NCBI RefSeq assembly: GCF_006345805.1
Contig: NC_042997.1
Span: 8,370,001-8,434,000, forward strand
Direction of reading: 5' to 3'
Origin: Octopus sinensis
Taxonomy: Eukaryota
Length of the DNA stretch: 64,000 bases
Positions 4,586 to 58,868 of this stretch are shown one piece after another. Position 1 is the stretch's first letter; each line of letters starts with the position of its first letter. The position numbers were made by a program, and so were the translations under genes. Below the pieces are notes generated by a model, which saw only the letters and a list, made by a program, of their open reading frames with translations, searched no databases and had not been told where the DNA came from.

Positions 4586-4902
4586 AAAACAATTGCAGCG
4601 TGGAAGGTGTTCATAAGCCATTTAAGAAATACACAAAATCCTTTAGATTCATTTCAACATTTAAATTTAATTTGTCAAAATATTTTCGCCGCTTTGAGAC
4701 CGCGACATGTTCACTGACAAATTTATCAGTGAACATGTTGCGGTCGAAAATATTTTGACAAATTAAATTTAAATATTGAAGTGAATCTAACGGTTTTTGT
4801 GGGTTTCTTAAATGGCTTATAAACACCTTCCACGCTGCAATTGTTTTCGTTCCAGCACACGATCTCAGATCAGGTCACCTACTATGCAAGTACATCTCCG
4901 TA
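4586..4902. repeat. Fold-back element: ~130-bp inverted arms (4586-4720 / 4722-4847) plus a 55-nt single-copy tail; PLE-derived architecture
   Basis: aaaacaattgcagcgtggaaggtgtt...gttcactgacaaa is mirrored by tttatcagtgaac...aacaccttccacgctgcaattgtttt. The tail cgttccagcacacg...ctccgtaa abuts (TA)n. Confidence 0.85.
4669..4723 (-). ncRNA. Minimal type I hammerhead ribozyme-like motif, G3-C8 core variant
   Basis: Minus strand reads AAUUUGUCA-GUGAACA-U-GUCGC-GGUCUCAAA-GCGGC-GAAA-AUAU-U-U-UGACAAAUU. This gives a 9-bp stem I, a 5-bp stem II with one G-U pair, and palindromic stem III AAUAUU. Confidence 0.6.
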
Positions 4903-4919
4903 ATATATATATATATATA

Positions 4920-5070
4920 TAGAGAGAGAGAGAGAGGGGGGGAGAGAGAAAGAACGAACGAAAGAAAGAAAGAAAGAAAGAAAGAAAGAAAGAAAGAAAG
5001 AAAGAAAGAAAGAAAGAAAGATAGAAAGAATGAAAGAAAGAAAGAAGGCAAGAAAGGAGGAGAGAGAGAA
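4920..5070. repeat. (AG)n/(GAAA)n microsatellite
   Basis: Directly visible. Confidence 0.95.
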
Positions 5071-5329
5071 AGTAATCACATGCATAACACCACACTACCC
5101 CATCACATATATACCCTCATATATGCACGAATCATATACACGAAATAAAACACACAAACACAAACAAACCAAGACCACACATCCACATAGACATCCTTAC
5201 ACTTCGTAACAATATCTTCGAAAATACTAGGTTTGCAATGGACACATGAACACTCGAAGAAAAACATATACACATTAAGAGTACAAGGACGTGCACAGAT
5301 ACACACTTGCTGTATTTGTGTATGTGTAC

Positions 5330-5562
5330 CTATTTATTTACTACCCACAAGGAGTTAAACACAACGGAGACAAACAAGGACAGACAAACGGTCAAGTCGA
5401 TTACATCGACCCTCCAGTGCGTAACTGGTACTTAATTTATCAACCCCGAAAGGATGAAAGGCAAAGTCGACCTCGGTGGAATTTGAACTCAGAACGTAAC
5501 GGCAGACGAAATACGGCTACGCATTTCGCCTGGCGTGCTAACGTTTCTACCAGCTCGCCGCC
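5330..5562 (-). mobile_element. tRNA-like SINE, family B (Nin-domain-like core)
   Basis: Reverse complement begins ggcggcgagctggtagaaacgttagcacgcc...gagttcaaattcc and contains gtcgactttgcctttcatcctttcgggg. Matches copies at 11.0 and 25.6-26.0 kb. Confidence 0.85.
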
Positions 5563-5874
5563 TTATTTGTGTATTCGTGTATGTATACAGGATTATGCAC
5601 ACTCGCTCACAGTTACCTTCCTTGGGACTCTAGCACGTATGACTTGATCATTCAAATCTCATGCCACTTTCAATATGATTTATCCCGGACTAAAGCGCAC
5701 CTTCCTATTATACTCACGTGTCGTTGCGAAACTTTAATCTCTGTCTGATCTTCGGAAGAAAAGCTGAAAGTCGAAACGTTAAAGACGGTTTTAATTTTCT
5801 CCTTTTTTTTACCAAACTTCAGACTAATAATTACGTATTGTTCTCACTTTGTCTTCCGAGCTATTAATTTCAAC

Positions 5875-7395
5875 TTATACATTCACACATACACACATAT
5901 GTGCGTATACATATATAAACATGTAATCATATATATGAATATATATATATATATATATATATATATATATATATATATATATATTATATATATATATATA
6001 TATATGTATATTATATAATATGTATGTATATATATGCATGTATATATATATTATGTATGTATGAATACATATGTATAGATAAATACATTTATATATGTAG
6101 TGTGATGTATATATATATATATATATGTAAGCATATATATATATAGATATATACACATGTATATATACATACACACGCACACACACACACACACACATAT
6201 ATATATATATGTGTGTGTGTGTTTGTGTGTATGTATGTATGTATGTATGTATGTATAACACTTACACGTCTGATTAAACCCTCTAGAATGTGTTATATTT
6301 AACATTTCTATATCTAATGTCCTATATACGTGTGGTACGTTCTGCCTCTGTTGCGTTATCTTTGTATTTGTTCTTTTTTTCGATTTTCTATTTGTTTATG
6401 CTTACACCTTTTTTTTTTTTAATATATTTTACGTGTATATTATATATATATATTTTTTTCCTTTTAATCTTTTTATCAATTTATTTTTTCTTTTCCTCTT
6501 TCATTACTTTTTTTATCTATTTATTCTTTACTCTTAAGTTTCTTTGTTTATTTATGGCTAGATAATTTATTTTCGATTTCAGTGAATGCCCACACTTATC
6601 ATCATGGTTATGAATGCAGTGTTTTTGGCTTTTGGTTTTTGGTTTTTTTTTTCACCTCAGAACTCGGTTGCCTTATCAATGACATTTGCGAGACTCAGAT
6701 TAGTAACATAGATTAATCTCAGCACAACAATAAAACTAACAATCTACTTCTGTGTAGAGTAATTCATGTTTTCATATATATGCACACCTATACATACTCG
6801 TACGTATATATATATATATATATATATATATATATATATATATATATATATATATATATATATATATATGTATATATATATATACAATATACATATAAAC
6901 ATATATACATATATACATATATACATATATGTATATTAAAATATTTATATATACATATGCATACATATATATATATATACTATATATATATAAATATATA
7001 TATATACATATATATATATATATATATATATTATACATATATATATATACATATGTATATGTATATATGTATATCAATATAATATTCTGTGTTTATATAC
7101 ATATATACATATACGCATACATGTAACATAATATATACACCCACCCCATCTCCCACATATATGTATATGTATGCATACATGTAATATATTCATGTGTGTA
7201 TGTATAAGCATCTGTTTAAGGAAGCATATGTGTGTGTATATATATAGATACCTACATACATACATACATATATACGTACATACATACATATATACGGATA
7301 ATTATATATGAACATATATTATATATATATATATATATATATATATATATATATATATATATACAGATACACGTATATATACATTCGTACATATA
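5875..7395. repeat. Compound (TA)n/(CA)n/(TATG)n microsatellite tracts with a T-rich spacer
   Basis: Directly visible; explains the YI/HT-rich spurious ORFs. Confidence 0.9.
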
Positions 7396-7600
7396 CGTTC
7401 GTTTGCTTTTTGTTTTATTTTTTATTTGACATTTCGATCAAAAGATCTTTTTCAAAGAAAAGAAGAGTTTATATAAAACACAACATGAAGAACACAAAAG
7501 CACAGAACTTATTTTATGACAGCAGATTTCAGAAACTTTCCATCCCATCAGGCCAGTGGACAGAGTTCTGACAAGTATCTTCAACCTACAACATGTTGCG

Positions 7601-7790
7601 TGGAGGGCGCGTAGCTTAGTGGTTTAGGTGTTGGACTCAGTATCGTAAGATTATGGTTTCGATTCCTGGACCGGGTGATGCGTTGTGCCCTTGAGCATAG
7701 CACTTCATTCCACGTTGCTCCAGTTCTCTAAGTTGGTGACTATATACGCCAATGAAACCGACTAACCAGCCCTTATGAGTCGACACTACT
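7601..7790 (+). mobile_element. tRNA-derived SINE, family D head
   Basis: ggagggcgcgtagcttagtgg...ggtttcgattcc (A/B boxes), then gttgtgcccttgagca...cacgttgctccagt, shared with 35338 and 37480. Confidence 0.75.
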
Positions 7791-57066: not shown

Positions 57067-57364
57067 GTATGTATGTGTATATATGTATGTGTATATATAT
57101 GTATGTGTATATATATATATGTATGTGTATATATGTATGTGTATATATACATATATGTATGTGCATATATATATGTATATATATATATATTATATATATA
57201 TATACATATATATATATATATATATATATATATATATATATATATATATATATATATACATATATATATATATATATATATATATATATATATATATATA
57301 TATATATATATATATATATATATATATATATATATATATACATATATCAAAAAGAAACTGAGTC

Positions 57365-57560
57365 AAAGGCTCATAAGGCTGGTTTCCAAGGTTTTCTGGC
57401 ATCTGTATTTCCCCACAGGACAGGATGCCAGTCTGTCACAGGATTGTTCATGAAATGAAGTGTTTTGTTTAAGAACACAACACATGACCCAATCCAGGAA
57501 TCGAACTCACAATCTTATGATCATGTGTGCAACATCCTAAACATTAAGCCACGTGCCCCC
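57365..57560 (-). mobile_element. SINE family D, diverged
   Basis: Reverse complement gggcacgtggcttaatgtttagg...gagttcgattcctgg...gttgtgttcttaaacaaaacacttcatttca. Confidence 0.7.
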
Positions 57561-57929
57561 ACATGCATACTTATGTATGTAAGTGCCTCCAGTCTCACAC
57601 ACTTGTGTGTGTGTGTGTGTGTGTGTGTGTATAAAAAGAATGGAACATGTAGTCAAGTACCACAGTAGTTTCACAAGCACATCAAGGTGTCTTACATAAC
57701 GTTAAGAATATCTGGTAGACATCCAGTCTACTAATGCATCAGGTGTATACGACAGCTTAGATGAAAATAATCCGCTTTAGTGGAGAATGCAAAAGAAAAA
57801 GAATAATGACAAAGTTGGGTGATGGTAGTAGGTTACACACTAGTCCAGAAACATGGAACAAGAAAAAGATACTAAGTATACAAAACAAATCAGTATATAC
57901 ATATAACTATAGGTGCATGAAAAAAAAAT

Positions 57930-58268
57930 GGTAAAGACCCTCTTCAGTAATGACTGGCCATGGGATTGCACCTAGACTGTTCCCTTCCAAGGCATAAGTC
58001 TGAGAAAGGTTGTTTATGGAAGACCAGCAGTCACCCATGCATACCAACCTCACCTCTCCATGCCACCGATGTTATCCAAGGAAAAAGCAAAGACTGATAC
58101 AGCTTGGCACCTGTGACATCATAACTCATTTCTATAGCTGAGTGAATTTGAGCAACATGAAATAGAGTGTCTTGCTCAAGAACACAGCACATAACCCAGT
58201 CCTGGGATCAGTACTCACTACCTCATGATTGTGAACCTGATGTTCTAATCACTGTGGCATGTGCCTTC
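57930..58268 (-). mobile_element. SINE with family D head and a different (RTE-like) 3' tail
   Basis: The head/core gtgttcttgagcaagacactctatttcatgttgctc is shared with family D. The 3' end is aatcccatggccagtcattactgaagagg. Confidence 0.62.
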
Positions 58269-58392
58269 ACATATATATAAACATATGCAAACAAATATAT
58301 ATGCATGTGCATATATATATATATATAATATATATATATATATATATATATATAGAGAGAGAGAGAGAGAGAGATATTTATATATAAATATA

Positions 58393-58640
58393 TATATGTA
58401 ATGGCATATAGAGACATATTTGTATATGTAGCCATGTGTATATTAAAGAATATATATGTGTATATAGCTATTTATATGTATATATGCATGTGTATATATA
58501 TACTTATATGTATATATGCATGTATATATATATATATATATACATGCATATATACATATAAATAGCTATATACACATATATATTCTTTAATATACACATG
58601 GTTACATATACAAATATGTCTCTACATACCATTACATACA
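58393..58640. repeat. Inverted duplication of low-complexity sequence centred on (TA)n
   Basis: agagacatatttgtatatgtagccatgtgtatattaaagaatatatatgtgtatatagctattttata is mirrored at ~58555-58625. Confidence 0.85.
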
Positions 58641-58831
58641 CATATACTACAAAACAATTAAAGACTAAAATACAGAGTATCCCAGAATTAACTGTTTCAG
58701 TGTAATCATACAACTTTTTTGAATTCGATTTTACTTATTCTGTTGTGTCTGGGGTGAGTCATTCTCTTTTAATGCCTTATTATTTAACACACACACCGGT
58801 AAAATTTCCACTTATTTTTATTTTCATTTTC

Positions 58832-58868
58832 CTAAAATTTTCGTTGCATCTTGCAACCTTTTCAATAG
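58832..58868 (-). ncRNA. Minimal type I hammerhead-like motif, U3-A8 core variant
   Basis: CUA-UUGAAAA-G-GUUGCA-AGA-UGCAAC-GAAA-AU-U-U-UAG. 6-bp stem II, palindromic stem III AAUU, but only a 3-bp stem I. Confidence 0.48.

Follow-up and report, generated by a model that had tools for sequence, protein, structure and literature searches.

Hammerhead-shaped motifs in short, probably Penelope-derived insertions of Octopus sinensis, among them an abundant G3-C8 family

What are the short, mostly fold-back, non-coding elements scattered over a 64,000-nucleotide stretch of Octopus sinensis DNA (RefSeq assembly GCF_006345805.1, contig NC_042997.1, positions 8,370,001 to 8,434,000; hereafter "the window", whose own numbering we use), and why do four of them, unrelated in sequence, carry motifs shaped like the hammerhead ribozyme in which core positions 3 and 8 are always complementary, as C-G, U-A or G-C? 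We call these elements E1 (4.6 kb), E2 (17.4-18.3 kb), E3 (47 kb) and E4 (58.8 kb), and add a decayed relative in form, E5 (40.5-40.9 kb). We consider it highly probable that E1 to E4 are independent short insertions made by Penelope-like elements (PLEs), with minimal type I motifs predicted to cleave only as dimers, and that most members of the E1 family carry G3-C8. The initial annotation of this DNA spoke of a dispersed "system", a word that independent insertions do not warrant.

Hammerhead-shaped motifs in four unrelated elements

A strict descriptor, indifferent to pairing between positions 3 and 8, runs N-UGA-N-N-A, stem II (after one extra base or none), GAAA, palindromic stem III, UH, stem I. 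It matches the window four times, at 4714-, 17700-, 17947+ and 58865- (position 3 and strand); block-wise dinucleotide shuffles of the window (n = 40) average 0.125 matches and never exceed 1. A descriptor that tolerates one defect adds the two copies in E3 (47181- and 47434+), and the resulting total of six was reached in none of 300 shuffles (mean 0.40, maximum 3). Both descriptors were composed after the elements had been seen. Hammerhead-shaped motifs in four unrelated elements, as first annotated, thus exceed chance. The annotated cores (CUGAUGA, GUGAACA and UUGAAAA) and their 3-8 complementarity are likewise confirmed, since the pair is Watson-Crick in all six motifs and in only 29% of 121 null matches; by a hand estimate, all four families would be paired by chance with a probability of about 0.29^4 = 0.007. 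Each of the six has a 3-8 paired, hammerhead-shaped core closed by stem I, with one defect in each E3 copy, and the score of the E1 motif was reached by no null match. A looser scan, in which stems I and III are not required, gives seven matches, three of which (11740+, 21949- and 14771-) are not complementary at 3 and 8; these three fail both fuller descriptors.

Apart from microsatellite and a single 20-nt match of E5, the five elements have no sequence in common. An extra nucleotide after position 9, before 10.1, annotated for three families, is indeed present in E1, E3 and E4, and absent from E2. The pair 10.1-11.1 is G-C in E1 and E4, G-U in E3 and A-U in E2, and stem III is a palindrome of 4, 6 or 12 nt in all four families, with a single change in one E3 copy.

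The features of E1, a fold-back spanning 4586-4902, are as follows.

4586..4723, minus strand: inverted arm, without tail (arm alignment)
4669..4723, minus strand: complete minimal type I hammerhead-shaped motif (G3 at 4714, C8 at 4709, extra base at 4707, predicted cut after 4678)
4719..4847, plus strand: direct arm, its hammerhead (G3 at 4729) disrupted by a stem II deletion of 10 nt
4848..4902, plus strand: 55-nt tail ending in (TA)n (arm alignment)

The inverted arms (4586-4847) are 86% alike. The motif at 4714- combines the core GUGAACA with an extra U, a 5-bp stem II closed by G-C, a stem III of AAUAUU, N17 = U at 4678 (the cut triplet being UUU) and a 9-bp stem I; the self-duplex of its stem III is predicted at -0.2 kcal/mol. 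A transcript of the whole element is predicted to fold as a single long hairpin in which the motif is buried. We also observe, just upstream of the core, a pyrimidine-rich ...CAG with G3 as its G (window 4707-4721, minus strand), which resembles a 3' splice acceptor; in the D. virilis Penelope, according to Cervera and de la Pena (2014, PMC4209133), the intron ends on the 5' side of stem I, and one may speculate that splicing bears on position 3 being G in E1.

E2 is longer and better preserved.

17437..17739, minus strand: inverted arm, adjoining (TA)n; hammerhead at 17632-17703 (C3 at 17700, predicted cut after 17635)
17740..17844, minus strand: partial tandem on the inverted arm, an upstream piece of 66 nt (17740-17805) with, ahead of it, a 39-nt tail copy (17806-17844)
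17843..17908, plus strand: partial tandem copy of 18181-18245, pseudo-LTR-like
17908..18210, plus strand: direct arm; hammerhead at 17944-18015 (C3 at 17947, predicted cut after 18012, stem III a palindrome of 12 nt)
18211..18271, plus strand: 61-nt tail ending in (TA)n

Its two arms (17437-17739 and 17908-18210, 303 nt) are 97% alike, with eight differences, and both motifs have the core CUGAUGA, no extra base, a long, interrupted stem II closed by A-U, a 12-nt palindromic stem III, N17 = C and a closing stem I of 3 bp. Two of the eight differences fall at mirror positions in stem III, so that the palindrome stays perfect; by hand, this coincidence would occur about once in 1000 if changes were random (it was spotted post hoc), and template switching in palindromes can give such mirror changes without selection. 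For stem III, self-duplexes of -23.5 and -26.5 kcal/mol are predicted, the monomers reaching no more than -1.8 and -3.3, and an E2 transcript, too, is predicted to fold as a single long hairpin that buries the motif.

The remaining elements are shorter or less complete.

47086..47223, minus strand: E3 arm; minimal hammerhead at 47141-47186 (C3 at 47181), with a mismatch closing stem I
47392..47529, plus strand: E3 arm; minimal hammerhead at 47429-47474 (C3 at 47434), with one stem III change (G>A)
58832..58868, minus strand: E4 minimal hammerhead with a U3-A8 core (U3 at 58865, predicted cut after 58835)
40511..40915, no strand assigned: E5, an old fold-back between TA runs; arms 78% alike, the plus arm keeping the 3' half of a hammerhead

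The arms of E3 (138 nt) are 91% alike, and both motifs have the core CUGAUGA, an extra A and a 6-bp stem II; the defect of each copy is absent from the other. Beyond the minus arm the sequence continues toward about 47010, a possible tail whose end is undefined. Between the arms lie (ATT)n and, by eye, a tRNA-like SINE head (47313-47385, minus strand); ARAGORN, which found no tRNA, does not call it. E4 has the core UUGAAAA, an extra G, a 6-bp stem II closed by G-C, a stem III of AAUU and a 3-bp stem I; the element presumably runs down to about 58645, and has no inverted copy in the window. As to E5, the remnant from 40727 consists of GAAA, a perfect 10-nt palindrome and A. We rejected E5 as a fifth full hammerhead: the 3' half alone survives, and what looks like a "core" is the other arm in reverse complement.

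The architecture first annotated therefore needs some adjustment. Most of the elements are fold-backs, as was said (E1, E2, E3 and E5), but E4 is not; the degenerate fifth element holds as a fold-back and, beyond its 3' half, fails as a hammerhead. Inverted duplication with a single-copy tail of 40-60 nt is right as to the arms and the E1 tail (55 nt), while the E2 tail is 61 nt long and not single-copy, parts of it recurring at 17806-17844 and 17843-17908, and the supposed tail at 47 kb has no sharp end.

The E1 family in public sequencing runs

Is G3-C8 a peculiarity of the copy in the window? Part of E1 is present in 20 of the 24 public runs listed, 19 of them under four organism labels; the insect-metagenome run X20 (share 0.07) was left out of account. 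Four runs were aligned to E1 at 80% likeness: three contig runs gave 13,824, 15,628 and 9,455 aligned contigs, and one RNA run gave 1,692 of 12.9 million reads. The depth summed over the family is not a copy number; nevertheless, the E1 family is a very abundant repeat, and the sequence that flanks E1 in the window has zero depth in the runs.

Variant places were counted from 4% upward. Seven of the variant rows lie inside the hammerhead and none in its core (among the 40 of 158 rows displayed). One of them, 4689, is A in about 98-99% of the depth, which turns the stem II U-G of the window copy into U-A, so that in the family majority stem II has five Watson-Crick pairs and is better paired than in the window; another, the extra base at 4707, is G in 85-99% of the family. 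The remaining rows give wobble pairs (two), break a pair at a CpG (one) or lie in loop II (two). The three contig runs have no G>C place at 4% or above and a single G>T place, at 4802, which means that neither C3-G8 nor U3-A8 reaches 4% in them; the RNA run has two G>C places, at positions outside the rows displayed. G3-C8 is thus the majority state of the E1 family, and 3-8 complementarity, which the initial annotation had named as the property to look for in other copies, is kept there. "Covariation" of this pair holds across the four unrelated families; within the E1 family the pair is fixed, which may reflect a single event.

The ends of the family are informative too. At the 3' side, some copies stop at 4841-4846, where TA-rich flanks begin, and others go onward through the tail, and past the tail 162 RNA reads continue with shared sequence (agreement 0.71). 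Upstream of the hammerhead about 16 letters are shared, followed by divergence (agreement 0.52-0.55 in all four runs). The fold-back junction of the window is almost without depth (949 against 741,582 beside it, run X1), and other copies invert elsewhere. A 22-letter E1 pattern (positions 3, 8 and 9a open) had 5 metagenome, no viral and 10 prokaryote-genome matches, none of which extends past 35 nt of E1, and we attribute them to chance.

Penelope-like origin and rival explanations

How would such insertions arise? A PLE protein would, as in published PLE work, nick AT-rich DNA or (TA)n, reverse transcription would start inside a PLE RNA at either of two sites downstream of the hammerhead, and cDNA synthesis would stop soon after passing it; a second, inverted copy would often be added from the other start site, leaving a fold-back with a one-sided tail. 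The hammerhead would cut solely as a dimer, in the source RNA, and the tertiary 3-8 pair would have to be kept, families drifting among C-G, U-A and G-C. The two internal start sites of Frangieh 2024 would explain the one-sided tail, and the two alternative 3' ends of the E1 family match them. The PLE-type form of insertion (a truncated copy in inverted orientation, or a partial tandem, and a tail at one side) is clear in E1 and E2, both of which have TA flanks, partial in E3 and not seen in E4. A stem III that is predicted to be unable to form a monomer hairpin (E1, E3, E4) or that prefers a self-duplex (E2) has the geometry of dimer-type hammerheads. By RNA features and by form of insertion, then, the elements look as first annotated, that is, like minimal type I hammerheads of PLE type in PLE-type insertions. 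The copies in the window are probably inactive relics, to judge from motifs on opposite strands, the predicted burying hairpin and the defects in three copies.

Several observations weigh against this account. Pfam finds GIY-YIG or reverse transcriptase (RT) in none of the 100 reading frames within 2.5 kb of the elements (100 of 253 frames), and the RT fragments elsewhere in the window look to us like those of ordinary LINEs; since no PLE reading frame lies near the elements, we infer their PLE parentage and "non-autonomous" status, as we do dimer cleavage and selection on the 3-8 pair. E2 lacks both the extra base and G10.1-C11.1, E3 has G-U at 10.1-11.1, and stem I of E4, at 3 bp, is worth just -1.0 kcal/mol. 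By score alone, a shuffled window gives 0.18 chance matches as good as the 47-kb motif and 0.10 as good as that at 58.8 kb. Local Rfam scans list no hammerhead at E1 (23 matches) or E3 (3 matches). E1 is the only family followed beyond the window, and the rows displayed (40 of 158) are compatible with low-level A3-U8 or with single changes at 3 or 8. The RNA reads of E1 show no pile-up of ends at the predicted cut, in a library of a poorly suited type and under another organism label, and they come in both orientations about equally. Finally, the tails of E1 and E2 (55-61 nt) exceed the 30-40 bp of published PLE insertions (Craig 2021, PMC8557442).

A refinement, rather than a contradiction, of PLE-made insertion is that E1, and possibly E2 as well, represent genuine non-autonomous elements of small size (about 200 nt, and a possible unit of 430 nt) with master copies of their own, as the initial annotation proposed, and are not short cDNAs made from full-length PLEs; here we find the arguments nearly balanced, leaning slightly to the negative. 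A common 5' boundary is suggested about 23 nt before G3 by the 16 shared letters and the loss that follows, tail sequence stands upstream of the hammerhead on both E2 arms, as from a small tandem or circular template, and non-autonomous PLE derivatives have been published (Craig 2021, PMC8557442; Li 2026, preprint 10.64898/2026.07.22.740005). However, a sharp 5' end would be equally expected from reverse transcription running off the start of a full PLE mRNA (to judge from PMC11167929), the 162 RNA reads that go past the E1 tail mean that a longer template exists, partial tandems also arise from template jumps, and most single motifs were read as truncated PLEs by Cervera and de la Pena (2014, PMC4209133).

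The G3-C8 motif could also be dead or non-catalytic, the swap having been fixed once in a founder whose family then spread without cleavage; we think this unlikely, while giving it weight. PLE insertion in vitro was not reduced by hammerhead mutants, and RNA-seq gave no cut ends (PMC11167929), Naiad PLEs spread without canonical hammerheads (Craig 2021, PMC8557442), and E1 copies that descend from few masters would make of the fixed 3-8 state one event; the triplet UUU and the feeble stem III duplex of E1 fit this as well. On the other hand, G3-C8 is two transversions away from C3-G8, and together they restore the pair exactly; in the family majority the core is otherwise intact, as are both stems, and N17 = U would avoid a G3-C17 pairing (to judge from PMC3884650).

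A reading of the fold-backs as MITEs or foldback DNA transposons, with hammerhead shapes that are accidents of AT-rich palindromic DNA, is very improbable: long inverted arms do adjoin TA, the descriptors are post hoc and the E3 and E4 scores are within reach of shuffled windows, but six matches occur in none of 300 shuffles, the hammerhead stems are internal to each arm and not products of the fold-back (E1, E2, E3), and the E1 family has asymmetric ends and a fold-back junction peculiar to the window copy. For E1 we rejected the MITE reading, as there are no fixed terminal inverted repeats and the points of inversion vary between copies; the nearly unsupported junction and the other inversion joints argue in the same sense.

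Returning to insertion by PLEs, one may go further and suppose that the E1 family is a PLE-dependent element of about 200 nt, occurring by the thousand in several related species of animal, with a working natural G3-C8 hammerhead. We put this forward tentatively, and would sooner bet against the whole of it than for it. If true, the family would be the first case of G3-C8 at high copy number in animals, with all three active 3-8 pairings in one genome, and surveys based on CUGANGA and UUGANAA would have missed a class of PLE ribozymes. Search patterns would then have to widen, and there would be an abundant natural case in which to ask if PLEs retain their hammerheads for cleavage, a point in doubt, since mutating the hammerhead does not stop PLE insertion in vitro (PMC11167929). 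Most of the window elements would still be ordinary PLE debris.

The window is otherwise AT-rich animal DNA with many microsatellites, SINE-like repeats and broken LINE fragments, and the best 150 of 307 Rfam matches over its whole length are nearly all miRNA-like hairpins on microsatellites. At 54875-55103 a perfect inverted repeat of about 90 bp lies by (TA)n, with a one-sided continuation, and resembles a PLE-type fold-back without hammerhead. A fragmented non-LTR retrotransposon with weak RVT_1 matches occupies 797-2889 (minus strand), and its motifs recall LINEs of the restriction-endonuclease type; further LINE fragments have RVT_1 at 35978-36451 (plus), a weak PHD match at 56314-57189 (minus) and a CR1-like 3' piece at 61756-62088 (plus). 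GC-rich hairpin repeats starting at (CAT)n, at 39771-40042 and 40373-40514, form a family with inverted copies, also seen by eye elsewhere in the window, and no hammerhead was detected. Tandem arrays of 62-66-nt and 138-nt units lie at 55141-56140 and 33883-34223, those at 55 kb being mutually inverted. A weak fibronectin type I match at 3094-3258 (minus; E 4e-4, below the cut-off) is possibly an exon, or chance.

Comparison with known hammerhead and PLE systems

Much of what is described here has precedents. Cervera and de la Pena (2014, PMC4209133) reported minimal hammerheads of metazoan PLEs with palindromic stem III and an extra base between 9 and 10.1, in many unrelated families per genome, mostly as single motifs or opposite-strand pairs 100-700 bp apart, with mass dispersal as single motifs and weak cleavage as dimers; a U3-A8 core has about 1,300 matches in S. 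mansoni. The extra base makes E1, E3 and E4 similar to these, and E2, which has none, resembles two of their examples but differs in its longer stem II and 12-nt stem III. The stem III of E3 is the commonest published one, and E4 has the UUGAAAA core of Schistosoma mansoni family 4 and the stem III of an oyster example. The novelty first claimed thus falls away for U3-A8, the extra base, the palindromic stem III and the opposite-strand pairs, and remains for G3-C8: the examples that we counted in that paper (n = 56) are 53 C3-G8, 2 U3-A8, 1 U3-G8 and no G3-C8. Its base descriptor begins with cuganga and is unable to find G3-C8, which bears out the warning of the initial annotation that a CUGANGA search would miss both G3-C8 and U3-A8 cores.

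The form of the insertions also has its counterpart in PLEs. Inverted truncated copies, partial tandems, one-sided tails of 30-40 bp and microsatellite targets are described in Craig 2021 (PMC8557442), so that the inverted copy with tail at microsatellites, though present here as annotated, is not new. In Frangieh 2024 (PMC11167929), the Poseidon_Ac protein cuts AT-rich DNA and has two internal RT starts downstream of the hammerhead. The window elements share with these the inverted truncated copies, the partial tandems, a one-sided (here longer) tail, AT-rich or microsatellite targets and two 3' end points downstream of the hammerhead, but are without coding sequence. Non-LTR retrozymes (Cervera and de la Pena 2020, PMC7229834; Li, Clavereau and Pollet 2026, preprint 10.64898/2026.07.22.740005) are likewise non-coding and short repeats with hammerheads, akin to PLE pseudo-LTRs and supposedly mobilised by PLEs; they consist of head-to-tail repeats with a mostly canonical hammerhead in each unit, whereas our scan of the window found no same-strand pair of related hammerheads in any element. 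A 2026 paper on Octopus vulgaris repeats counts Penelope-like families, and its main text does not mention ribozymes.

In our search of the literature, thin for subscription papers and older hammerhead surveys, G3-C8 appeared in engineered variants only and in no natural hammerhead. A paper by Lunse, Weinberg and Breaker (RNA Biol 14:1499), which by its title is said to concern small PLE-linked variants that cleave as dimers, may already list it. Natural U3-A8 was reported by Perreault 2011 (PMC3088659), whose text, as available, names no other 3-8 swap. The nearest comparison is experimental: the PLE hammerhead of PMC11167929 cuts only with the protein present, C3G or G8C alone abolishes cutting, and the C3G/G8C double mutant partly restores it. 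The pair engineered there is natural in the E1 family, which would add to the naturally covarying 3-8 pairs one that we met in print only as a laboratory double mutant of partial activity. The motifs of the window most likely work like PLE minimal hammerheads; among the four families, three add new members to that known kind, and the G3-C8 family would be, should it cut, a modest new variant of it.

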